From: an uncultured Gammaproteobacteria bacterium
Lineage (GTDB): Bacteria; Patescibacteriota; Patescibacteriia; CAYHOC01
Assembly (NCBI GenBank): GCA_964358135.1
Contig: CAYHOC010000001.1
Location: forward strand, 1 to 41,168
Length of the DNA stretch: 41,168 bases
Direction: 5' to 3'
The position numbers and the translations under genes are program-made. The notes under the pieces were generated by a model. It made no database searches and was not told the DNA's origin. It saw only the letters and a program-made list of their open reading frames with translations. Shown in pieces: positions 235 through 38,445 of the stretch (the first letter of the stretch is position 1; each line of letters opens with the position of its first letter).

Positions 235-309
235 TTCTGATTTCACGAACCGGTGAACTTGCAATATAAAATCTTTATGCTAAAATCTAAAATAGACAGG
301 AGGGAAAAA

Positions 310-717
310 ATGAGCGTGGAGTTCTTTTTTGAATTGGCAGGCAAGGGCGGGGGCTGCGGTCTTTGCGCTCTTAACACCATCCTGACGATGTTCGGCAAAC
401 GAGGAGTGATTTTTCCGTTCTCGTCTGAAAAAGGAATTTCTCCCAAGAGGATTCTTCGTGAATTGCGCAGGACGGGCTTGATTGCCGAGCCAAAAACAAT
501 CAGCATCCGTAATCTTAGGCGTCATTCAATCCTTTGGTATCCGCTTCCGCGAGACCACTATGTCGTAGTTAGAAAAATTGCGAATGGCAAGGCGTTAATT
601 TACGACAGCGAAAAAAATAGACCATATTGGTGTCGGCTATCCATCCTAAAAAAGAAATGGTATAGATGGCATAAAGGCAGATGGTGCGGATGGGTGATTG
701 AGGTCAAAAAGAAGTAA
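310..717 (+). CDS. Stand-alone papain-fold (C39-like) cysteine peptidase domain protein
   Basis: AGGAGG lies 8 nt upstream of ATG 310, so I prefer this to the track start at 253. GGGCGLCALNTIL resembles the catalytic Cys motif and DHYVVV the His motif of C39 bacteriocin-processing peptidase domains. A terminator follows. Confidence 0.5.
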   Translation: MSVEFFFELAGKGGGCGLCALNTILTMFGKRGVIFPFSSEKGISPKRILRELRRTGLIAEPKTISIRNLRRHSILWYPLPRDHYVVVRKIANGKALIYDSEKNRPYWCRLSILKKKWYRWHKGRWCGWVIEVKKK

Positions 718-990: not shown

Positions 991-1031
991 AAAAAAAAGA
1001 AGCCGGCTCAATCCCGAAGGATCAAACCGGC
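991..1031 (-). terminator. Intrinsic terminator of the large ncRNA
   Basis: On the minus strand, GCCGGTTTGATCC-TTCG-GGATTGAGCCGGC (1031-1002) is followed by CT and a T8 run (998-991). Confidence 0.8.
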
Positions 1032-1712
1032 CGCCTGCGTGTCCGACCACCGTTGCGGGACAGTGGAGTGGAACGCAAGTTGTGTTCCTCACGGCACGCG
1101 ACGAATCGCGCGCCATGTGAGAGTGTGTCGACCGGTGTGTCTATCCTGGCTACACGACCGGTCCTAAATAACTGGTTTCGAAGGAGGGCAGGTCCCGCTG
1201 CCACGCTTTGTCCTTTCGAACCACCTTCAACGCCCGCGTCAGGAGGCGGTGATGGAAACTACGGACGACATTCGGGGTCGTCCAGCCCGGGCCGCGATGC
1301 CAGCGGCTCCCTTTTGGCTTGTCCCACGGTACTTAACACGCTTACGCATGTTAAGGTTGTCAGGATCACCGACCCACCGCTCTATGCGTGTGGAGACCGT
1401 GGCGCGTCTTAAAGGGAGCGGGATCGGCAGACATTTCGGTCCGCCGGAAATCTTCACGTCCCGATTACTTGGGACGAGAGTTTGAAAAAACTTTACCCCT
1501 TCAGACCGTAGCCAGGCGCCTGTTTGGCGCTTAACTGGCTCGTGTCCGGACCCCTCGGAATAACCAAGGATGGTTTACTGCAGTCCACTGCGTGTCCCCG
1601 AACCTCGCGGTTCGGATTCTTTCACGCCTCGGTTTCCCGAGACGGGGTTGGAAAGAACCACCCAGGAGACCACCGAAGTGGTCTCCTGGGGTGCTACACT
1701 ATAGCACATTAT
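991..1712 (-). ncRNA. Large (~720 nt) highly structured non-coding RNA, family unassigned
   Basis: The block is GC-rich and has no credible ORF. It has its own promoter and terminator on the minus strand. Many helices are capped by GNRA or UUCG tetraloops only when read on the minus strand (1661-1690, 1625-1644, 1597-1616, 1332-1355, 1093-1114). Confidence 0.7.
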
Positions 1713-1718
1713 GATTGC

Positions 1719-1747
1719 AGTATATCACATTTCGCAAAGTTTGTCAA
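1719..1747 (-). promoter_or_regulatory. Sigma70-type promoter of the large ncRNA
   Basis: On the minus strand, TTGACA (1747-1742) is followed by an exact 17-nt spacer and TGaTATACT (extended -10, hexamer 1724-1719). The predicted +1 is near A at 1712. Confidence 0.7.
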
Positions 1748-1965: not shown

Positions 1966-4719
1966 ATGTCCTTCTTCTCAAAAATCTTCGGCGATCCGAA
2001 CGCGCGGGTTATCAAAACATTGGAGCCCGTTGTTTTTAGGATTAACGAGCTGGAACCGGAGTATCAAAAATTATCCGATGTGGAATTAAAGTTGAAGACC
2101 TTGGAATTCAAAGAGCGTCTAAAAAAAGGTGAAACGGTTGATAATATTTTACCGGACGCTTTTGCCGCCTGCCGCGAGGCCGCGTCGCGCACGCTTCACC
2201 AGCGCCATTTTGATGTTCAGCTGATGGGCGGGATGGTTTTGCATCGCGGACAAATTGCCGAAATGCGCACCGGCGAGGGTAAGACCTTAACTGCCACCCT
2301 CGCGGTGTATCTTAACGCTTTGGAAGGCAAGGGCGCGCATGTGATTACCGTCAACGATTATCTCTCCCGCCGCGACGCCACCTGGATGGGGCAAATCTAT
2401 TACGCCTTGGGTCTTTCGGTTTCCTGCGTCAATCATCAAACCGCTTTTATTTACGACCCGGCTTACACCAAAAAAGAGGAGGAAAAAAATGCCGAAGGTA
2501 GTGAGGTAGATAAATCGCGCGATACCTTGGGCGTCTTCAAGATTGAATATTCGTATCTCCGGCCTGTCCAGCGTCGCGAAGCGTATGAGGCGGACATCAC
2601 TTATGGCACCAATAACGAGTTCGGTTTTGATTATCTCCGCGACAATATGGCGCCGAATCTTGAACAAAAAGTCCAGCGGCCGCTTAATTTCGCGATTGTT
2701 GACGAGGTGGATTCAATTTTAATTGACGAGGCGCGCACCCCGCTGATTATTTCCGCGCCGGCCGAGGAATCAACCGATTTATATTACAAATTCGCGGACT
2801 TGGTAAAACGCCTCAGGGAAGGCGAGGATTATAATGTGGATTTAAAAATGCGCGCCGCGACTTTATCCGAAGGCGGTATTTCCAGAATGGAAAAATTTTT
2901 GGGCGTAGCCAATATCTACGAAGCCGGCGGCGTAAAAATGGCGCATCACATTGACCAGGCGCTAAAAGCCCGCGCCCTTTTTGTCCGTGATAAGGATTAT
3001 GTGGTGAAAGACGGCGAAGTGATAATCGTTGACGAGTTCACCGGCCGGATGATGTTCGGCCGCCGCTACAGCGAAGGTTTGCACCAGGCAATTGAAGCCA
3101 AAGAAGGCGTGAAAATCCAGCGCGAATCGGAAACTTTAGCAACCGTCACTTTTCAAAATTATTTTCGGCTTTACAAAAAATTGGCCGGAATGACCGGCAC
3201 CGCCGCGACCGAAGCCGAGGAATTCTCAAAAATTTACAATCTGGAAGTCGTGGAGGTTCCTACTAATAAGTTGATGGTTCGTGAGGATTTGGTGGACAGA
3301 ATTTATAAATCCGAACACGGCAAGTGGATGGCGGTGGTGAAGGAGATTAAAGAACGCCACGGCAAAGGCCAGCCGCTTTTGGTTGGCACGATTTCCATTG
3401 AGCGAAATGAATTTCTATCCAATCTGTTGGAGCGCGAGGGCGTGCCGCATAAACTTTTGAACGCTAAAAATCACGAGAAAGAAGCGGAAACCATCGCCCA
3501 GGCCGGCCGCGTCGGCGCCGTCACCATTGCCACCAATATGGCCGGCCGCGGCGTTGATATTATCTTTGGGGGAAATCCGGTCAATCCGGAAGAGGCGGCC
3601 AAAGTCCGCGAACTCGGCGGCCTCCATGTTATCGGTACCGAGCGCCACGAGTCGCGCCGCATTGACAATCAGCTCCGCGGCCGCGCCGGCCGTCAAGGCG
3701 ACCCGGGCTCAACGCAGTTTTATGTTTCCATGCAGGACGACCTGATGAAAATTTTTGCCTCGGATACGGTGCGCTCGCTGATGGACCGTCTGGGTTTGCC
3801 GGAGGATATGCCGATTGAAAATTCATTGGTTTCAAAATCTTTGGAATCGGCGCAGAAAAAAGTTGAGGGCCACAACTTTGATATCCGCAAACATTTGCTT
3901 GAGTACGACGATGTATTAAACAAGCATCGCGAGGTTATCTACAAAAAGCGCGATGATATTTTGGGCATTACCGAAAAGGGGAGTTTGCGGGATGAAATCT
4001 TAAAATTAGTTGAGCAGGAAATTGAGCAGATTGTTTTATTCCACACTTCTAATCCAAACGAGCTGGAATGGAATGTTGAAGAAATCTACGAGAGCGTCGG
4101 AACGATTTTTCCGATCAAAACCGAATCGCGGATTAAGATGGATGATCTCCGCCATCATGCCGGCGATAAATTGCAGGATATTTCCGCGCGCACCGGCATC
4201 ATTGAATATCTGGTCGGGCTCGCCAATACCGCCGGCGACGAATTTGAACGCCGGATTGAAAATGCCGCACCCGAAGGTTTGGACGCGAGAAAGTTTATTG
4301 CCGAAGTGCAAAAAAATGTAATGCTGCACGCGATTGATGCGATTTGGGTTGAGCATCTGGAGGCGATGGATCACTTAAAGCAGGGGATTGGGCTCCGCGG
4401 TTATGGCCAGCGCGATCCGCTGGTGGAGTACAAGCGGGAGGCGTTTAGGATGTTTCAGGAACTGATTGCTTACATCAACAAACAAGTCGTTTATAATATC
4501 TTCAAAATCGGCATCTCCACCGAGCCGAACCGTTCGCTCGTCAACCGCCGCGGCATTCAATTTTCCGCTCCTGCCAAAGAAGGGGATGCGCGATTTTCCT
4601 CCCCTTCAGAAGGGGGAGCGAGAGGGGGTCAACCCGCCGAAGCTTCAGCCAAGGTTGGCCGCAATGACCCATGCCCATGCGGTTCGGGGAAAAAATACAA
4701 AAAGTGCCATGGGGCGTAA
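1966..4719 (+). CDS. secA: Preprotein translocase ATPase SecA
   Basis: 917 aa. It has the MRTGEGKTL Walker [19 protein letters not shown], and the C-terminal zinc motif [19 protein letters not shown] lies 9 nt upstream of the ATG. Confidence 0.97.
4598..4630. repeat. Family A repeat unit inserted in frame in the secA C-terminal linker
   Basis: cctccccttcagaagggggagcgagagggggtc encodes [12 protein letters not shown]. It is the same unit as at 5682-5714. Confidence 0.8.
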
Positions 4720-5681: not shown

Positions 5682-5763
5682 CCTCCCCTTTAGAAGGGGA
5701 GGCGAGGAGGGGTCTGTGTTGGTCTTTTTTGACCTCCCCACGCCCCTCCTTCTGAAGGAGGGG
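5682..5763. repeat. Paired family A GC-rich palindromic units between thpR and the GT26 gene
   Basis: The arms are cctcccctttagaaggggaggcgaggaggggtc (5682-5714) and gacctccccacgcccctccttctgaaggagggg (5731-5763). The right arm carries the SD GGAGGGG 2 nt before ATG 5766. Confidence 0.85.
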
Positions 5764-5765
5764 AT

Positions 5766-6503
5766 ATGAAAGTAGAAATCCTCGGCGTAAAAATTAATAA
5801 TGAGAATACCTCGCAAATCACTGCCGGGATTATTGAACGCATTCGCCAAAAACAAAACACCTTCATCGCCACGCCGAATCCGGAAATGCTGGTTTTGGCG
5901 CGCCGGAACAATCAATTCAAAAATATCCTGAACGCCGCCGATATTGCGATTCCCGACGGCTTTGGATTAATCTTGGCGGCAAAATTCTTACATCTGCCGC
6001 TCAAAGAAAAAGTTTCCGGCGCTGATTTGGTAGAGAAGGTAATCAAAGAATGCGGCGATGAATTGCGAATCTTTCTTCTAGGCGCCGAACCGGGGGTGGG
6101 GGAGAGGGCGGGGGAATACTTAAAACGATTGAATCCGGCGGCGCAGATTGTCGGGATTGAAAGCGGAGGAAAATTAAATGCGGACTTTAGATTTCAAAAT
6201 GAAGAATCTATTATACAAAAAATAAAAGAGAGCAGCGCGAACTTATTATTAATCGCCTTTGGACAAGTTAAGCAGGAAATCTGGATTTATCGCAATCTTC
6301 AAAATCTTCAAGGCATAGCGGCTGTTGGCATTGGCGGGGCATTGGACTTTTACGCCGGTAAAGCTCGCCGCGCGCCAGATATTTTACGACGCCTCGGATT
6401 AGAATGGTTCTGGCGCTTGCTCTTGGAGCCAAAGAGAATCAGGCGTATAATTAATGCGGTGATTGTTTTTCCATACTTAGTTTTAAAATATGGCCGAAAA
6501 TAA
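5766..6503 (+). CDS. WecB/TagA/CpsF family (GT26) glycosyltransferase
   Basis: 245 aa. The pattern FIATPNPEMLV...ADIAIPDGFGL...LGAEPGV...DFYAGK..RAP is typical of TagA/WecG-type N-acetylmannosaminyltransferases. Confidence 0.85.
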   Translation: MKVEILGVKINNENTSQITAGIIERIRQKQNTFIATPNPEMLVLARRNNQFKNILNAADIAIPDGFGLILAAKFLHLPLKEKVSGADLVEKVIKECGDELRIFLLGAEPGVGERAGEYLKRLNPAAQIVGIESGGKLNADFRFQNEESIIQKIKESSANLLLIAFGQVKQEIWIYRNLQNLQGIAAVGIGGALDFYAGKARRAPDILRRLGLEWFWRLLLEPKRIRRIINAVIVFPYLVLKYGRK

Positions 6504-12803: not shown

Positions 12804-13898
12804 TTAAAGTTTTCTGTATCTTGTGGTTCTCCCCAATCCAATTCGTTCAATCTTTTTAAGTTTCAGCAATACTTCAAGGGCTTGTTTTACGGTCGGTCTC
12901 GATATTTTGGTATTTTCCGCGATATTACCCGTGCTTGTTTCTTTTATTTTTTCAATGTATCGCCAAACCATCAGTTGTTTTTCGGACAGAATTTTTTCTA
13001 TGTTTTCCTTAGATAATAATTCCACGGCGATTTGCGATTGTTTTAGAACAATACTCAAAAAGAAATCGAGCCAATCAATAATATTCTCATTTTTCACGCC
13101 CATGGATTTTTGACTGCGGCGCAAGGCGATATAATAATCGGGTTTATTTTCCTCAACTAATTTTTCATGGGAAACATAGGGTATATATGCATATCCGGCT
13201 TTAAGCAACAATAGATTTGTCAGTACGCGGGATAGTCGTCCGTTTCCATCGGTAAAAGGATGAATTTTTAAAAATTCAACTAAAAAATTTCCAATCACCA
13301 ACAATGGATGGCGCTTATTTTCCCCCAATGCTTTTTGTGTCCATTCAACCAAATCGCGCATTTGGCTGGGGGTGAGATACGCCGGCGCGGTATCAAAAAG
13401 AATACCGACTGATTGACCCGCCGCATCTATCATATGCACTTTATTTTCACCCTTTTTGTATTCGCCCCGATGTCTTTCATCCTTTTCTACATACTTCAAA
13501 AGTTCTTGATGAAAATGCTTGATTGCGCTTTCGCTCAATTTGATGCTCTCCCACGAATTAAAAACATTTTCTAATAATTCATAATATCCCCGCACCTCTT
13601 GCTTGTCGCGGCTGGTAAATTTTTGAATATTAATGCCGCGCATCAGTTTTTCAATATCTTCATCGGAAAGGCGAGATCCTTCAATACGCGTGGAAGCGCC
13701 AGTTGAGGTAATCAAAACCGATCGTTTCAATCGTCCCAAAACCTGCGGGCTTAGACGAGCGCCGGTTATCCAGCGTCCTTTTAATTCGTCAATTTTGGCG
13801 ATTTTAGAAACAAGAATAGACGGAAGCTGTTCTATCCGTTTTGAAAAATTATCCGGAGGCGAGTGTTTTTCCGTTGGTTTTTGACTTCTTTTTGGCAT
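12804..13898 (-). CDS. Fic family protein (AMPylase type) with C-terminal winged-helix domain
   Basis: The Fic motif is HPFTDGNGRLSR and the N-terminal inhibitory motif STRIEG fits [ST]xxxE[GN]. The C-terminal ...GNIAENTKISRPTVKQALEVLLKLKKIERIG is HTH-like. ATG 13898 is preferred to the track TTG at 13919. Confidence 0.88.
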   Translation of the reverse strand: MPKRSQKPTEKHSPPDNFSKRIEQLPSILVSKIAKIDELKGRWITGARLSPQVLGRLKRSVLITSTGASTRIEGSRLSDEDIEKLMRGINIQKFTSRDKQEVRGYYELLENVFNSWESIKLSESAIKHFHQELLKYVEKDERHRGEYKKGENKVHMIDAAGQSVGILFDTAPAYLTPSQMRDLVEWTQKALGENKRHPLLVIGNFLVEFLKIHPFTDGNGRLSRVLTNLLLLKAGYAYIPYVSHEKLVEENKPDYYIALRRSQKSMGVKNENIIDWLDFFLSIVLKQSQIAVELLSKENIEKILSEKQLMVWRYIEKIKETSTGNIAENTKISRPTVKQALEVLLKLKKIERIGLGRTTRYRKL

Positions 13899-13904
13899 AT
13901 TTTT

Positions 13905-13941
13905 AATTGGATATATCAACTATATCCAATTATATCCAATT
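13905..13941. promoter_or_regulatory. AATTGGATATA repeat triplet (operator-like) just upstream of fic
   Basis: aattggatata (13905-13915) faces two tandem inverse copies, tatatccaatt (13921-13931 and 13931-13941). Confidence 0.45.
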
Positions 13942-26991: not shown

Positions 26992-29900
26992 TCAACCGCA
27001 TTTTGAGTATCCGCACACCGGACAAAGCATACAACTCTCTTTGAAGACAAGCATCCCGCCGCATTCCGGACATTCCGGCGCGTGGCCGACATTGGCAATT
27101 GAGAAAGTTCGGAGCGGCGTTTCCGCCAGCACATAATCGCGCTCCGGCACATGGAGCCCGGTGATTTGCGCCGCCAGCATCGGTTCAGCCGAAGCGGCCG
27201 GCAAAGTTTCCGGATTTATCCCGTTAGAAATTAAATTTTTAACGGGATTTATTGTTCCGGCCATCCCCTGCTCCCTGAACTCCAGATTCAATTTTGCCTG
27301 CGGTTTTTGGATGTGCTCAAGCATCACATGGGCGATGGCGTCCGGAATGGAAAGAATTTGTCCGTATTTTCCCCACGACGGCATCGGGCCCCTGATTCCC
27401 TTGATTTGGTCAATGATCGTCTCGGCCGGAATACTGCTCCGCAGTCCGAGCGAAATCAGGCGGCAAATCGCTTCTGACTTGGCGGCAAAAAATCCGCCGG
27501 TCTTACCGATGGTCGCGAAAACTTCAAAGGGATTGCCCTCTTCGTCATTATTAACGGTAACAAAAAGCGTGCCATACCCTGTTTTAACTTTATAAGTGCT
27601 TCCGGAAACAATCTCCGGCCTTGGTTTCGGCGAAAAAACATACGGCGGCGGCGAGGCCTCTTGTTTTGCCGCCGACGCTTCCAATGTCTTGGCTTCCGCC
27701 TCCGATTTTTTAACATCTTCTTTGGAAGTCAAAACCGCGTCATCGCGCGAACCGTCTCTGAAATATGTCGCGCCCTTGCAGCCGAGTTCGTAAGCCAGAG
27801 CGTAAAGCTCTTTCACCTGCTCAATCGTATGCGTCTTCGGAGCATTGACTGTTTTGGAAATGCTTGAATCAACATATTTTTGAATCGCCGCCTGCATCCT
27901 GATGTGCTCTTCCGGGGTGAGCTGTTTCGCGGTGATGAAATATTCCGGCAATTTTTCGTTTGAATATTTTGTTTTAAATTCTTCATACAGCGCGTGATAC
28001 ACCTCGTGTTCGCCGAGCCGGTCTTTGCGCGTGAGGACGAAATCATAAATCGGCTCAATACCGGAAGACGCCTCGGCCAGAATGCTGGTGGTGCCGGTCG
28101 GCGCCTGCGTCAGAAGCACGGCATTCCTGATGCCCTTATTCCTGATTTCTTCGCGTAAATTTTCCGGCAAACGCTTAATGAACCATCCTTCAAGATATTT
28201 TTCCGCGTCAAAACGCGGAAAAGCCCCTTTTTCCGCGGCGATTTCAATTGATGCCGCATACGATTCATCGCGGATAAACCGGTAAAGTTCCTCGCACAAA
28301 TCCAGCGCTTCCTTGCCGCCATAGCGGATTTTAAGCTTGATTAAAAGATCGGCCAGGCCCATTGTCCCCAAACCGACGCGCCTGGTTTGCATCTGGGCCG
28401 TCCGATTTTCCTCAAAGATATAATAGGTGGCGTCAATCACATTGTCCAAAAATCGCGTCGCCGTCCGCACGGTGGCGCCGAGCGCCGCGTAGTCAAGCCT
28501 CCCGTCCCGCTCAAATTTTGCAAGATTCACCGCGCCCAAATTGCACACCCCCCAGGCGCCGAGTCCCTGTTCGCCGCAATTGTGAACGACAAGGCCGTTG
28601 GCCGAAAAAGAATGACTGCTCGGTTCAACTAAATCGTAGACCATCTCTTCACCAAGATATTCTAAATTTTTGAAGGTTGCCAAAAACTGTTTTTCATACG
28701 GACCTCGCCGGTATCCTTGCAAAAGGTCGTTTAATTTCGTTTGTTTCGCTTCCGACAAAAAACCTATCTGTTCCGCAAAAACAGCAACCATATCCTGACT
28801 GATAACCAGGTCGTGTTGGGCTTGGCAGAAATACGGAGCTAAGCCGCCCTTGCCGTTCGGAAGTTCGCGCACTCCTTCCGACCGTCGCTCGGTGTAAATA
28901 CTGCTCACAATTTTAAAGTTCAATAACAATTGCTGCACCTCTTTAAGCAAAGATACTGAAACGGATGAAAGGCGCGCGCTCACGCCTTTTTGGATTGTGC
29001 CCGCCACATGGCCGTCAGCCGTAAACAAACCTTGCAAAAAACCTCGTTGCATATCAGCCGAACCCTCCCACACGGACTTCGGCACTTTCAATTTTTCACC
29101 GATTGCGAGGCCGGCATCAAAAAGCAGGGCCGTCAATCGCTCTGAGGAAACGCGCGCTTCGTCGCGATTGGTCAGCAAACAAGCGCTAACGGTATAAACG
29201 CGTCCGCTCCTTTCGGCGACTGTGGCGCTTTGATTTATTGCCCGATTTACAAAATTAGCAAAAACCGGCGCGAGTTCCCGCTTTTCTTCGCCAAAAAAAG
29301 ATAAAACCGCCAAATCTTTTGACTCATTAAAATGTCCGTCGCCCACAAACCAGCCGAGAACGCGCCCCCATTCGGCATCTCCTTCCTTTCCGAATCCTCC
29401 GCCGTTATTGGATAAAAAGATTTTGTCGCCATTCTTCAAATGCCCCGCTTCCACCCATCCTTGATCCGTGCGTACGCGATGGTCATATGTCAGTTTTATT
29501 TCATATCCCTCCTTGGTCTCTAATTTGTACACTTTTTTTACGCCGGACTGAATAATTTTTTCCACGGCAGAAAAACGTTCTCCGCTCAAACGGCTATCTA
29601 AAACAACCGAGACCTTACTCTGACTTTCAAATAGCTCCTTAATTGTTTTAAGACCATCCGCGGTGGCAACGCGCGTATCGCCGGCAACGCAGGGATTGAC
29701 GCAAATAATTTTTTCATAATACCAGGTGTTTGACTGTTTATTGTAGCGGTCGGTAAAAACAACACCCGGCTCGCCCGACGCCCAGGCCGACTCGCAGATT
29801 TTATCCCATAATTCGCGCGCCTTGACTGTTTTATGCACTTTGCCGCCCCATTTCAGTTCCCAGTCGCGGTCTTCTTTCACCGCTTCCATAAAAGGATCAG

Positions 29901-30498
29901 AAACGCAAACCGACAAATTGGCATTCGTAATCAAACCCATGGTGCGCTTGACGGTGATAAAATCTTCAATATCCGGATGGTCGTCGTTTAACATCAGCAT
30001 CAAAGCCCCGCGGCGCGAGCCGCCTTGAGTAATCAGGCCGGTGGCGTAAGAATATAATCCGCCGAAAGAAACCGAGCCCGAAGCGGTGCCATTGACGCCT
30101 TTTACATAATTTCCTTTCGGGCGAAGCGTAGAGATATTAACGCCCACTCCCCCGCCCCGCGACATAATTTCCACCATCAATTTGACGCTGTCAAAAATGC
30201 CGCCGCGGCTGTCTTCCGGCGAAGGAATCACGAAACAATTGTAAAAAGTGAGCTGGGCCGATGTCCCGGCGCCGGACAAAATCCGTCCGCCTGGGACAAA
30301 CTTGAAATCTTCCAGCGCGTTATAAAATTTTTCTTCCCAAAAATTTTTCGTCTCTTCGGTTTTCTCTCCCCCGGCAATAAAATGAGCGACGCGGCGCCAC
30401 ATTTCTTCGGGCGCGCGTTCAATCTGCTTGCCTTCGCCATCCTTTAAGGCATAGCGGTCGTTAAAAACTTTTAGAGGAAGACCGGAGAGTTCAAGCAT
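26992..30498 (-). CDS. nrdJ: Adenosylcobalamin-dependent (class II) ribonucleotide reductase, intein-containing precursor
   Basis: 1168 aa (797 aa of extein). It has no ATP cone. The motifs are SRGGGVGVNISTLRPKG and the active-site NPCGE (split by the intein), plus a C-terminal zinc ribbon CPECGG...CPVCG. Confidence 0.92.
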   Translation of the reverse strand: MLELSGLPLKVFNDRYALKDGEGKQIERAPEEMWRRVAHFIAGGEKTEETKNFWEEKFYNALEDFKFVPGGRILSGAGTSAQLTFYNCFVIPSPEDSRGGIFDSVKLMVEIMSRGGGVGVNISTLRPKGNYVKGVNGTASGSVSFGGLYSYATGLITQGGSRRGALMLMLNDDHPDIEDFITVKRTMGLITNANLSVCVSDPFMEAVKEDRDWELKWGGKVHKTVKARELWDKICESAWASGEPGVVFTDRYNKQSNTWYYEKIICVNPCVAGDTRVATADGLKTIKELFESQSKVSVVLDSRLSGERFSAVEKIIQSGVKKVYKLETKEGYEIKLTYDHRVRTDQGWVEAGHLKNGDKIFLSNNGGGFGKEGDAEWGRVLGWFVGDGHFNESKDLAVLSFFGEEKRELAPVFANFVNRAINQSATVAERSGRVYTVSACLLTNRDEARVSSERLTALLFDAGLAIGEKLKVPKSVWEGSADMQRGFLQGLFTADGHVAGTIQKGVSARLSSVSVSLLKEVQQLLLNFKIVSSIYTERRSEGVRELPNGKGGLAPYFCQAQHDLVISQDMVAVFAEQIGFLSEAKQTKLNDLLQGYRRGPYEKQFLATFKNLEYLGEEMVYDLVEPSSHSFSANGLVVHNCGEQGLGAWGVCNLGAVNLAKFERDGRLDYAALGATVRTATRFLDNVIDATYYIFEENRTAQMQTRRVGLGTMGLADLLIKLKIRYGGKEALDLCEELYRFIRDESYAASIEIAAEKGAFPRFDAEKYLEGWFIKRLPENLREEIRNKGIRNAVLLTQAPTGTTSILAEASSGIEPIYDFVLTRKDRLGEHEVYHALYEEFKTKYSNEKLPEYFITAKQLTPEEHIRMQAAIQKYVDSSISKTVNAPKTHTIEQVKELYALAYELGCKGATYFRDGSRDDAVLTSKEDVKKSEAEAKTLEASAAKQEASPPPYVFSPKPRPEIVSGSTYKVKTGYGTLFVTVNNDEEGNPFEVFATIGKTGGFFAAKSEAICRLISLGLRSSIPAETIIDQIKGIRGPMPSWGKYGQILSIPDAIAHVMLEHIQKPQAKLNLEFREQGMAGTINPVKNLISNGINPETLPAASAEPMLAAQITGLHVPERDYVLAETPLRTFSIANVGHAPECPECGGMLVFKESCMLCPVCGYSKCG
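28579..29691 (-). mobile_element. Intein (371 aa) with a LAGLIDADG homing endonuclease domain
   Basis: It starts with Cys270 (CVAGDTRV, codon 29691-29689) and ends with VVHN (Asn640, codon 28581-28579), followed by the +1 Cys. Block B is TYDH. The LAGLIDADG motifs are LGWFVGDGHF and LQGLFTADGHV. Confidence 0.9.
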
Positions 30499-31651: not shown

Positions 31652-31687
31652 GTAGAGACGCCCCGATGTCCATCGGGGCGTCTCTAC
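31652..31687. repeat. GTAGAGACGC hairpin family, copy 5 (extended stem)
   Basis: gtagagacgccccgatg-tc-catcggggcgtctctac: 17-bp arms. Confidence 0.9.
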
Positions 31688-35938: not shown

Positions 35939-36838
35939 CTAAATTAAAAATATTCTCTGGCAAAAAGCACTAATGCCGATTCCATTGGTATTATTAGTTT
36001 GAACTCTATATGCCGGAACATTATTAATATAAATTGTATAACCGACATTGGAGCCGCTGTCTTTTTTGGCAATTATCTCATCTTTCACCGCCGTTTGTTT
36101 TTCCGCGGATTTATAAATTACCACTCCCAAATTATTGGCAATGATTACGTATAAGTCTTCATCAAAACAATCAGTGATAAAATTTAAAAATTCTCTCTTC
36201 CTTTTGAGAGATAAGTTATTAAATGCATTAAAACAAATTTTATTCAGCAGTTTTTGATATTTTTTGCCGTTATTCTGCGCCCATCGCAACAGATTTTTAT
36301 TTTTCTTGGCTAACTTTTTCAATGCGTTATGTTTATCGAATTTTTTTCCAGTAACATTAAAAATATAATTACGCAGTTTCTGCCACATTTCATCTTGCCG
36401 CTCCTTAAAGCTAAAACCAAACCACTGCTCTAATTTTTTTAATCCGAGATTTTTTAACGTGCCAGCGCCGGATTCGGCGATGGATTTTATGGAAAATCGT
36501 GTCTTGTTCCTGCTCATATGTTCAGCGTCAACATCGGAAGTTGACTGTTCAATGACAAAATGTCGGCCGATCCAGGTAACGCCGATAATTTTACCCTTCC
36601 TGGATATCTCCTCGTCCAATATTTTCTTAATTTCGGGTTGAACTTTTAAAAGATTATTATTTTGCAACTGCAGCCGTTCTTTACCATCCGGTTTATTCAA
36701 TACCTGATTGGATAATTTAGCCAAATCATCGCTGTATGAAAAAGTGATATTGTATAAGTGGCAAATATACTGACAAACCAAAAGCTCGAAATAATCGGCT
36801 TGCGCTCGGTTGGATTTATTTTTATTCTTATTGGTCAT
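35939..36838 (-). CDS. Putative type II restriction endonuclease
   Basis: 299 aa. Its ATG lies 1 nt after the methyltransferase stop. A possible PD-(D/E)XK-like core is SDVD...FSIKS. The region is AT-rich (about 30% GC by eye). There is no other recognisable domain. Confidence 0.55.
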   Translation of the reverse strand: MTNKNKNKSNRAQADYFELLVCQYICHLYNITFSYSDDLAKLSNQVLNKPDGKERLQLQNNNLLKVQPEIKKILDEEISRKGKIIGVTWIGRHFVIEQSTSDVDAEHMSRNKTRFSIKSIAESGAGTLKNLGLKKLEQWFGFSFKERQDEMWQKLRNYIFNVTGKKFDKHNALKKLAKKNKNLLRWAQNNGKKYQKLLNKICFNAFNNLSLKRKREFLNFITDCFDEDLYVIIANNLGVVIYKSAEKQTAVKDEIIAKKDSGSNVGYTIYINNVPAYRVQTNNTNGIGISAFCQRIFLI

Positions 36839-36839
36839 A

Positions 36840-38294
36840 TCAGTTAAAATATTTTTCAACGATTTTATTTATATGAATCTGTTCATGCTCAAAGTTATAT
36901 TCTAAATTTTTATTCATACTTTTAATAATATCCTTAGAAATGGCAGCGATACTTTTTATATCATCATCCTTAAAATCCGGCATCGGCAACTTTTTAATAT
37001 CTCTGATCTGTATGGAATTGGTGTGATTGAGTAATTTAACCATTTTATTATAAATTCCACTATTTAAAAGTCCGACAAAAAATTCCGGCGGATGTTTTTG
37101 CGGGTCTTTTGGAAAAAAACACATTGCCTTATTGCTCTCCCAGAGCGCGCCGACTGTTGACAGTCGGGCGGTCAAACTAGAACAAATGCCCGAGATAATA
37201 AAACCGCGACGATATTCATTGATATTGAGATCTCGCGGCATCTTATAATGTCCGACTGATTCTTTGTCCCATCTTATGGCATATTCGGCTGGTAAATAGT
37301 ATTTATTATTCCCGCCTTTTTTGTGATAAAATTTCCATCTTTTGCCGTCGATATTTTTAACGGAAATTTTTTGATCAATGCCATTATTCTTAACATACTG
37401 TATTCCGCCGTAGTCGGCAATAGCTAAAAATTTATGATTATCGGTCGTATGCATTCCCAATCCGCCGTCTAAATAATTAACCATTTTTTTAAATTCATCT
37501 ATTTTTCCCAACAATTTTGCTCCACCATTAAAATCAAAAACACAATCCGGATATGATAGAATATTATTTTGAATCGTCTGATATTTCTTGCCATTATAAT
37601 CATCGACGTTATTTTCCCGACAATCATTAAAAATAACCACATGCTTATCGGCTGCTTTTTTATTGGTCAGATAAATAATGCTGGTATTTACCAATGCTCC
37701 GCTATCCTTAAACAGTCTTTTGGAACATAGGGTAATCTCATTGATGGTATAATTTCTTAATAAAAATTTTCTTAATTTTTTGTGAATACCCAATGTTAAA
37801 TAAGTATCGCTAATAATAAAACAAAGCTGGCCATTATCTTTCAGTAATTTACATCCCAAATATAAAAACATAGCATAGGTATCATTGGCTCCAATTTCCT
37901 TAAAAACATCACCCAGCTTATGCTTATTTTTCTTTATATAATCACTTTGTTTGTTTAAATAAGGCGGATTACCGACAATATGAGAAAATTGCTCACAACC
38001 AAAAAGAGAATCATTAGTAAAATTAGTACTTAAAAGAGTGTCTTTGATAACAATATTTTTTATACCTAATCCGGCTAATCCTTTTTTAACATCCGCATTT
38101 ATATCCCAAACAGTTATCTGATCAGACTTTAACAACTTATTTCTTAAGACTACGGAAACAAAAGCTCCATCGCCGCCGCTTGGCTCCAATAATCTGCTAT
38201 TTTTATCAAAATCGGTTAATCTGCCAACCATGTATTCAACCGTATGTATGGGCGTATAAAAAGCACCCAGTTGTCTCTGCGCCTGTTTATTCAT
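36840..38294 (-). CDS. N6-adenine DNA methyltransferase, gamma class (TaqI/Eco57I-like)
   Basis: It has GAFYTP near the N-terminus and the AdoMet motif LEPSGGDGAF before the catalytic VGNPPY. The large C-terminal region is a likely target-recognition domain. Confidence 0.85.
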   Translation of the reverse strand: MNKQAQRQLGAFYTPIHTVEYMVGRLTDFDKNSRLLEPSGGDGAFVSVVLRNKLLKSDQITVWDINADVKKGLAGLGIKNIVIKDTLLSTNFTNDSLFGCEQFSHIVGNPPYLNKQSDYIKKNKHKLGDVFKEIGANDTYAMFLYLGCKLLKDNGQLCFIISDTYLTLGIHKKLRKFLLRNYTINEITLCSKRLFKDSGALVNTSIIYLTNKKAADKHVVIFNDCRENNVDDYNGKKYQTIQNNILSYPDCVFDFNGGAKLLGKIDEFKKMVNYLDGGLGMHTTDNHKFLAIADYGGIQYVKNNGIDQKISVKNIDGKRWKFYHKKGGNNKYYLPAEYAIRWDKESVGHYKMPRDLNINEYRRGFIISGICSSLTARLSTVGALWESNKAMCFFPKDPQKHPPEFFVGLLNSGIYNKMVKLLNHTNSIQIRDIKKLPMPDFKDDDIKSIAAISKDIIKSMNKNLEYNFEHEQIHINKIVEKYFN

Positions 38295-38445
38295 ATAAGC
38301 AGATTATAGCACAAATTTTTGTTTTCAAAAATATCCGTGTTGATCTTTTTCTTGCGTAAAAAATGTTTATATTATAAAATAGAAATGTAAGTCGCGAAAC
38401 GACACCATAATTTTGAATTTTTTATCTTGAATCTTAAATGAAAAC

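Follow-up and report, generated by a model that had tools for sequence, protein, structure and literature searches.

What is encoded in a GC-rich block of about 0.7 kb that separates a gene for a C39-like cysteine peptidase from secA in a genome of Patescibacteria? The window analyzed here is the entire 41,168-nucleotide (nt) contig of a Patescibacteria metagenome-assembled genome, whose SecA protein has its best named relatives in Falkowbacteria, Uhrbacteria and Magasanikbacteria (62-67% identity); the sample names of identical contigs indicate Hainich groundwater, well H43, 0.2 µm fraction. The original prediction, made by inspection of the DNA, placed on the minus strand of this block an unclassified, highly structured non-coding RNA (ncRNA) of ~720 nt with its own promoter and terminator. 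Sequence comparisons support this view: there is no match to a known RNA family and no coding signal, the stable tetraloops are specific to one strand, the transcription signals are kept among homologs, and substitutions tend to preserve the structure. Very probably, the block is a stand-alone, dispensable gene for a stable, highly structured minus-strand ncRNA (from about position 1712 to 991) that is transcribed from a sigma-70-type promoter and belongs to an undescribed, clade-specific family, always located between the C39-like gene and secA.

Transcription signals and homologs

The G+C content of the block (991-1712) is 0.579, compared with 0.453 for the whole contig and with 0.370 and 0.399, respectively, for the flanking segments 761-990 and 1713-1965; the segment 1261-1320, cited earlier as an example of this enrichment, contains 41 G or C among its 60 nt. 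Read on the minus strand, the block begins downstream of a promoter that, in a promoter scan, matches the consensus in 11 of the 12 positions and has a TG extension in addition, with the transcription start predicted to lie near 1712. At the other end, the UUCG-capped hairpin followed by eight T residues that had been proposed as the terminator is in place (Table 1).

Homologs of the RNA were located via contigs encoding the neighboring C39-like protein, and the resulting comparison set consists of four versions from three lineages: that of the window, a 729-nt version in a co-occurring strain variant (L139), a 397-nt version (L137, Logan SRR22388187) and a 534-nt version (L143/L144, Logan SRR32696707/11). 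One more contig, L145 from Hainich well H41, encodes the same C39-like gene as L143/L144 and stops before the RNA. All the versions occupy the same locus in the same orientation and share the promoter, a terminator and one or two copies of a core unit of 42 nt. The promoter, TTGACAAAnnTTnnnAAATGTGnTATAyT, is kept in L139, L137 and L143, and the terminators of L137 and L143 are found in the same relative place as that of the window, so that in every version a single promoter and a single terminator, kept in position and sequence, bracket the RNA block. The size of ~720 nt holds for the version in the window and does not define the family, which is a mosaic of self-contained domains with versions of only 397 and 534 nt in the sister lineages.

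Coding potential and known RNA families

The G+C content of 58% in a contig of 45% and the presence of plus-strand open reading frames (ORFs) of up to 143 amino acids (aa) would be compatible with an mRNA for small proteins or with a decayed gene fragment from a GC-rich donor. This alternative is extremely unlikely. The ORFs of the region are short and mutually overlapping and yield no Pfam match; the longest of them, the 143-aa plus-strand ORF, has only two matches among 1.84 billion representative proteins, both judged spurious (a tandem-repeat artifact and a low-complexity protein), and a six-frame concatenated pseudo-protein of the region has no homolog among 5.8 billion proteins. None of the ORFs is conserved between the versions of the RNA, where the insertions and deletions (1, 1, 4, 10 and 4, 4, 1 nt) break every frame, and protein-like conservation, looked for in the homologous regions, was not found, the substitutions between versions showing no 3-periodicity. 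Thus, the earlier assertion that the block contains no credible ORF is borne out, there is no coding signal, and a coding or pseudogene origin is essentially excluded. One protein that matched the pseudo-ORF query, by repetition only, is P0121, which consists of 916 aa in the form of twelve identical 77-aa repeats and is, evidently, a miscalled ORF over a 231-nt tandem DNA repeat.

The search for known RNA families was equally negative. At the gathering score, cmscan of the entire window against Rfam 15 detects only a tRNA-Pro, and a permissive scan of 850-1900 (E<=10) adds only meaningless microRNA- and small nucleolar RNA-type matches on flanking AT-rich hairpins; L137, L139 and L143 have no Rfam match either. 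The covariance models of GOLLD (RF01998), ROOL (RF03087), OLE (RF01071), raiA (RF03072) and HEARO are unmatched in the window and in the homologs, no RNase P RNA, transfer-messenger RNA (tmRNA), signal recognition particle (SRP) RNA, 6S RNA, group I or group II intron is recognized by Rfam in the window scans, and ARAGORN finds no tmRNA. Accordingly, the Rfam scan that had been proposed as a check identified no known family at either cutoff, and the previous dismissal of RNase P, tmRNA, group II introns and SRP RNA for lack of their hallmark motifs is corroborated. The RNA appears to represent a new family within a known kind, the large, structured ncRNAs of unknown function in bacteria; literature searches yielded no description of one from Patescibacteria.

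Structure and selection at the RNA level

The minus strand of the block has a minimum free energy (MFE) of -339 kcal/mol, which corresponds to z = -9.5 relative to shuffled sequences (z = -9.9 in an independent run), compared with z = -5.6 to -7.8 for the weaker plus-strand fold. For the homologs, the z values are -8.2, -5.9 and -6.4, and the RNA strand always folds more strongly than the opposite one. The strand bias is also seen in the hairpins capped by stable tetraloops. The RNA of the window contains six GNRA or UNCG hairpins with stems of at least 6 bp, compared with a mean of 0.17 in shuffled sequences, none of which reaches six in 1000 trials. The RNA strands of the four versions carry 6, 5, 3 and 5 stable tetraloops, whereas on the opposite strands there are 3 and 2, on short stems of 5-7 bp, and then 0 and 0; with stems of at least 6 bp, the counts observed for the versions are reached by no more than 0-2 of the 1000 shuffles. 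The secondary structure therefore exceeds chance and is strand-specific, in agreement with the minus-strand tetraloops noticed by eye: all five helices described at the time are present, the last one with 12 bp when G·U is included, and the three additional hairpins are part of the MFE fold (Table 1).

The comparison of versions provides a second line of evidence. The window and L137 differ by 6 compensatory and 6 one-sided changes in predicted pairs. In the 5' domain, RNAalifold predicts 28 pairs, 6 of which are changed on both sides and none of which is broken except by gaps; the hairpin with the UUAUU loop alone accounts for 5 double changes. In domain C, there are 50 pairs with 4 one-sided changes of the G·U type and none broken. 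Altogether, 10 of the 10 one-sided changes go via G·U, that is, they would create C·A mismatches if the opposite strand were the functional one, and the GNRA loops remain GNRA across the versions (GAAA/GCAA, GCGA/GCAA). Taken together, the substitutions via G·U and the confinement of the tetraloops to one strand point to selection at the RNA level. Two further compensatory changes distinguish the window from L139, in helix 165-211 of domain B, and in the inner helix of the core unit 95.7% of the cells are paired and 2 pairs are changed on both sides. The search for covarying pairs suggested in the original prediction thus yielded compensatory changes (6 in the 5' domain and 2 in L139), at the low power afforded by four sequences.

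Shared domains also evolve slowly. The window and L143 are 83.9% identical over an alignment of 193 positions that starts 30 nt upstream of domain C, and the best block of this domain (1084-1155) has 68 of 72 positions identical (94%), compared with 57% identity at the four-fold degenerate sites of secA in the same pair of genomes. This excess of conservation over neutral sites (84-94% versus 57%) indicates that the shared domains are subject to purifying selection.

A mosaic of domains around a 42-nt core unit

The only RNA element present in every version is the core unit of 42 nt, which consists of an outer helix, an asymmetric internal loop AAC(Y)C(Y) and an inner stem capped by a GNRA loop (AAGUAAUC in the second copy of the window). 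The window, L139 and L137 served to build a covariance model of the 5' domain (R1). Outside its training set, R1 matches L143 (E = 6e-6) and, in addition, the second copies of the unit near the 3' end of L137 (E = 0.002) and inside the RNA of the window (E=0.037). A model of the core unit alone (R2) detects seven copies of the unit and nothing else in 67.7 kb, with scores of 60.7 and 50.5 bits for core units 1 and 2 of the window, respectively.

All other parts of the RNA come and go. The first 55-75 nt after the start are unrelated in sequence across all four versions, and in all of them this 5' end forms one or two hairpins, at -26 to -35 kcal/mol. Domain B, which is found in the window, L139 and L137, is composed of the GCGA hairpin, a UGGA hairpin, a hairpin whose UUAUU loop is conserved (1550-1574) and a long hairpin (1502-1548). 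The central domain has no counterpart in L137 or L143, which carry unshared stretches of their own. Domain C, which also occurs in L143, comprises several helices closed off by UUCC/GGAA, among them a hairpin with the loop AGCCAGGAUAG and the 12-bp UUCG hairpin. For the 3' closing module, L143 appears, by eye, to have an analog (UCGUC/GACGA). The RNA is thus a mosaic: its ends are conserved, and the self-contained domains between them have been acquired, lost or swapped from one lineage to another.

Two candidate motifs were dropped in the course of this dissection. The GGACACG motif is enriched only in the versions of the window and L139 and does not qualify as a family-wide feature. A Kt-7-like kink-turn (GCGUG|AAA|GA...GGA|CACGC) was rejected because its C-stem has 3 bp in L137 and competes with the better supported helices of the core unit.

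Table 1. Features of the RNA locus and its surroundings (window coordinates unless another contig is given)
Feature	Position	Strand	Description
Promoter	1747-1719	minus	-35 TTGACA (1747-1742), 17-nt spacer, extended -10 TG-a-TATACT (1727-1719)
Hypervariable 5' clamp	1661-1707	minus	hairpin 1 (1691-1707) and 13-bp UUCG hairpin (1661-1690)
Core unit 1	1614-1655	minus	outer helix UUUC(C)A/UGAAAG, 5'-side internal loop AACCC, 8-bp GAAA-capped stem
Domain B	1502-1616	minus	common to L139 and L137; nhmmer E=6.6e-10 to L137
Core unit 2	1446-1488	minus	paralog of core unit 1, apical loop AAGUAAUC replacing GNRA
Central domain	1263-1445	minus	window and L139 only; contains GUAA hairpin 1332-1355 and hairpin 1263-1283
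Domain C	1084-1262	minus	common to L143; nhmmer E=2e-35
3' closing module	1034-1078	minus	UGCGU/ACGCA helix around a hairpin; one of three GGACACG motifs
Intrinsic terminator	1032-991	minus	14-bp stem with UUCG loop (1032-1001), then T8/U8
UUCG hairpin	1661-1690	minus	13 bp
GAAA hairpin	1625-1644	minus	8 bp
GCGA hairpin	1597-1616	minus	8 bp
GUAA hairpin	1332-1355	minus	10 bp
UUCG hairpin	1090-1117	minus	12 bp including G·U
Further hairpins	1263-1283, 1457-1476, 1511-1539	minus	present in the MFE fold
hpf	1-234
C39-like peptidase gene, stand-alone	253-717		own terminator 737-760
13-4-13 palindrome TGATATTTGGCTG/CAGCAAAATATCA	1769-1798	none	inverted repeat between the divergent RNA and secA promoters
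secA	1966-4719		promoter 1810-1838
CCCTCC palindromic elements	1858-1954, 5682-5766; L006 1-101; L143 ~3195-3300, ~4005-4095; L137 ~1125-1225

The turnover of the 5' end is apparent even between strains that share an aquifer. Over 2889 aligned nt, the window and L139 show 63 differences, 61 of which fall within 1450-1749 and 51 within 1650-1749, a cluster that covers the 5' hairpins of the RNA (the first ~65 nt) and the promoter spacer; no difference is found in hpf, the C39-like gene or the remainder of the RNA, and 2 are located in secA. Because the promoter spacer of L139 resembles that of L137, this pattern is most simply read as the result of recombination over a short tract, with a diverged allele as the donor. 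Whatever its origin, the aquifer harbors two 5' alleles. It is conceivable, as a long shot, that the RNA is the specificity-bearing part of a conflict or recognition system directed against phages or against the host of the episymbiont, with the core units docking an effector and the 5' hairpins and domains under diversifying selection.

For a large structured RNA, such behavior is unusual: entire domains turn over among genomes that share 92-94% identity in the SecA N-terminus, and replacement of the 5' end is seen even in co-occurring strains. The family can therefore be regarded as a small natural experiment on the modular construction of large RNAs and as a concrete target for RNA structure work and groundwater metatranscriptomics. 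Metatranscriptomes from the Hainich are described in a published study (PMC12960796). The narrow distribution and the small number of sequences limit the weight that the family carries at present.

Distribution and copy number

The SecA N-termini of the window, L001, L006, L137 and L143 are 89-94% identical, which places these genomes in one genus-level clade. In the relatives found through SecA (L001-L006, 85-91% identity), the RNA is absent at the locus: in L001 (90% SecA identity), the C39 terminator is followed by ~50 nt and then by secA, and in the relatives with 85% SecA identity, hpf directly abuts secA. A close relative has, therefore, either lost the RNA or never acquired it. Given the existence of such sister genomes, the RNA is dispensable and its function non-essential. 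Searches of larger collections gave no further members. Phage and plasmid collections contained no match to the RNA in blastn, and viral contigs yielded none in a loci search with the six-frame pseudo-protein, only chance matches to the pattern GGACACGCAG...GGACACG and none in two further pattern scans, as checked by nhmmer. The core pattern had 26 chance matches among the GTDB species-representative genomes, 0 of them from Patescibacteria, and the domain C pattern recovered, among metagenome contigs, only the contig of L139 itself. The collection scans relied on exact patterns and are insensitive to divergence, so that distant relatives may have been missed; the family may be wider than observed, but is not obviously widespread. 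All the members seen so far belong to a single genus-level clade of Patescibacteria from groundwater. A second copy of the RNA domains was found neither in the 41-kb window nor in ~160 kb of related loci, and the collection scans revealed none either; this single-copy status refers to the window and related loci, as distinct from whole genomes, and is compatible with low copy numbers.

Copy number bears on another explanation of the block, namely, that the hpf-secA spacer is a hotspot that collects palindromic insertions, similar to miniature inverted-repeat transposable elements (MITEs), and that the RNA is a functionless, transcribed pile of such insertions. The locus does contain palindromic elements of the CCCTCC type, with a second copy elsewhere in the window and more in L006, L137 and L143 (Table 1), as well as perfect hairpins at 854-901 and 926-961; the RNA itself is a mosaic among close relatives, is missing in L001 and has an internally duplicated core unit. 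On this account, however, one would not expect domains that are single copy, one promoter and one terminator around the block in every version, 84-94% identity of shared domains where neutral sites have 57%, or the G·U-mediated substitutions and one-strand tetraloops that indicate RNA-level selection. A functionless pile is, accordingly, improbable. BOX, REP/BIME and Correia elements, with which the RNA shares the modular, hairpin-rich make-up, the presence/absence polymorphism and the location in an intergenic hotspot, are dispersed, many-copy repeats without a promoter-terminator pair of their own. The RNA differs from them in the single-copy domains, the conserved transcription signals and the purifying selection.

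The CCCTCC elements form a family of ~90-100 nt, with a CCCTCC...GGGAGGG hairpin, GAGGGnGGTCAC, an AT-rich spacer, GTGACCnCCC and a CCCCTCCTT...AAGGAGGGG hairpin; the right arm of the element provides the Shine-Dalgarno sequence of the downstream gene (secA or a WecG-like gene). These elements, for which Rfam gives only spurious microRNA-type matches, look MITE- or REP-like. The hairpins at 854-901 and 926-961 are AT-rich, perfect or near-perfect (17-bp and 18-bp stems), lie between the terminators of the RNA and of the C39-like gene, and are identical in L139 and missing in L137 and L143. The 16-mer GTAGAGACGCCCCGAT occurs once next to the RNA locus, at 824-839, and recurs between genes at 31.6 kb (31652-31687), where two perfectly inverted copies make up a hairpin; it therefore represents a second small repeat family.

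Gene neighborhood

The gene order at the locus is hpf, the C39-like gene, the RNA in antisense orientation and secA. According to Pfam, the remaining genes of the contig are of the housekeeping type, including tRNA synthetases, GreA, Adk, UvrD, TGT and an intein-bearing ribonucleotide reductase, which indicates that the RNA locus belongs to the core chromosome, with no obvious island. The promoters of the RNA and of secA stand back to back, and the 13-4-13 palindrome between them is kept in L137 and L143; it is part of the RNA cassette, the whole of which is missing in L001. The palindrome is a candidate operator for a regulator that might be shared by the two promoters.

This arrangement raises the possibility that the RNA is a cis-acting or antisense element that controls either secA, through the divergent promoter, or the C39-like gene, through convergent transcription. 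The invariable locus, the back-to-back promoters with the conserved palindrome between them, and the fact that the cassette gives secA a new promoter and leader relative to L001 would all fit. Against regulation of a neighbor, the RNA overlaps no gene and its strong terminator is located ~230 nt ahead of the C39 terminator; furthermore, a conserved, domain-organized structure of 400-730 nt exceeds the needs of promoter interference, and relatives without the RNA have an ordinary secA promoter. The probability of a role in cis or as an antisense RNA appears to be low.

The C39-like cysteine peptidase (~135-154 aa) evolves fast, with 64-85% identity among genomes in which the SecA N-termini are 92-94% identical. 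Homologs of this peptidase in other Patescibacteria adjoin dnaG, and the RNA is not nearby. This protein was considered as a partner of the RNA or a defense component and rejected, given that PADLOC and NCBIfam gave no match and that the homologs beside dnaG occur without the RNA.

Relationship to known RNAs and possible function

Bacterial ncRNAs longer than ~400 nt with complex folds are rare, and each class is either a core machine or an open problem (OLE, GOLLD, ROOL, raiA). Likening the RNA to GOLLD, ROOL and OLE, as originally proposed, is apt with respect to size and complexity, and less so in that the present family is limited to a narrow clade and has only ~42 nt of RNA and the transcription signals common to all versions. 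OLE is an ncRNA of ~600 nt with many helices and conserved internal loops and is thought to be a ribonucleoprotein scaffold rather than a proven ribozyme, similar to the role proposed below. The OLE sequence is conserved across many Bacillota and is co-transcribed with oap genes. The RNA described here, unlike OLE, is known from one genus-level clade, retains only the 42-nt unit in all versions and fails to match the OLE model; the ORFs of the window include only housekeeping genes by Pfam and no dedicated RNA partner was seen among them, in searches that were not aimed at Oap profiles.

ROOL and GOLLD resemble the RNA in length (500-800 nt), ornate structure, accessory and patchy occurrence, and discovery as GC-rich structured islands. 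They typically reside in prophages or near tRNA genes, whereas the present RNA is located amid housekeeping genes, and searches of phage, plasmid and viral collections gave no match to it. The raiA motif is likewise a structured ncRNA in the neighborhood of a hibernation-factor gene (raiA/hpf), and an abundant one. In Bacillota, its neighborhood is hpf-secA, with the RNA upstream of raiA on the same strand. The RNA of the window, in contrast, lies on the strand opposite to hpf and downstream of it, has two to three times the length of the raiA RNA and does not match the raiA model. The raiA RNA is described as ~200 nt long and conserved in >2500 species of Bacillota and Actinomycetota.

With CsrB/RsmZ, the RNA shares repeated stem-loop units of variable number, a strong promoter, an intrinsic terminator and fast sequence turnover outside the binding motif, so that a protein-sequestering RNA of this type is, with low confidence, the favored functional analogy. 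The hallmark of CsrB/RsmZ is a GGA in most hairpin loops, whereas the repeat of the present RNA is a 42-nt stem with an internal loop that occurs once or twice. A CsrB-like GGA sponge proper was dropped because only ~3 of the 22 predicted loops carry GGA and the 17 GGA triplets in 722 nt are mostly predicted to be paired; no gene for CsrA was noticed within the 41 kb.

The best overall explanation, and a likely one, is a new family of structured ncRNA genes with a product that is a putative trans-acting scaffold or decoy. The tiny genomes of Patescibacteria spare little dispensable sequence, and therefore, a strongly promoted RNA of 0.4-0.7 kb under purifying selection is unlikely to be idle. 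The specific mechanism is a tentative proposal: the RNA would be a long-lived scaffold or decoy that works in trans and offers its core units to a partner, the core units would be the sites bound by this protein or other partner, the terminal hairpins would shield the ends from exonucleases, and the interchangeable domains would extend the scaffold or adjust it. A ribozyme built around an invariant catalytic core is unlikely because too little is conserved.

Alternatively, the RNA could be an RNA-only machine, either a self-assembling particle similar to ROOL and GOLLD or a ribozyme, in which the core units and loops mediate contacts or catalysis. The size, the ornate multi-domain fold and the accessory, patchy distribution would be in line with such a machine, as would a possible loop-loop pair, UUAUU/AAGUAA, both loops of which are present in the window, L139 and L137 and neither in L143. 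A cryo-electron microscopy study describes GOLLD, ROOL and OLE as forming homo-oligomers (PMC12286853). Nevertheless, the Rfam models of these families are unmatched, the ~42 nt common to all versions are too little for a catalytic or assembly core, and the length of the versions ranges from 397 to 729 nt, which together make an RNA-only machine rather improbable.

Several observations weigh against the interpretation of the block as the gene of a trans-acting scaffold or decoy. The transcription unit is predicted from its promoter and terminator signals, and the proposed mechanism is derived from the anatomy of the RNA. Covariation is statistically weak, the comparison being limited to four versions that represent three lineages: for the core unit, 7 of 500 shuffles attain the observed covariation score and 51 of 500 the observed count of double-change pairs, only 75% of the cells in the outer helix of this unit are paired, two adjacent pairs of helix 165-211 are broken in L139, and several predicted pairs are broken in L137 beyond the well-aligned part. 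No candidate partner was found among the neighbors examined, and the C39-like gene also occurs without the RNA. The locus gathers palindromic elements, which could inflate the apparent structure, and the sister genomes L001 and L002-L004 do without the RNA at the locus.

Other features of the contig

Elsewhere in the contig, a Fic-domain protein (12804-13919), 11 kb from the RNA, matches PADLOC SoFic (E = 1e-41) and is a candidate anti-phage defense gene. The large subunit of ribonucleotide reductase (26992-30498) is split by an intein with a LAGLIDADG homing-endonuclease domain. The stretch 36000-38400, which has a low G+C content (0.31-0.33, compared with 0.45 for the contig) and encodes a restriction-modification protein of the Eco57I/N6-methylase type, was probably acquired horizontally.

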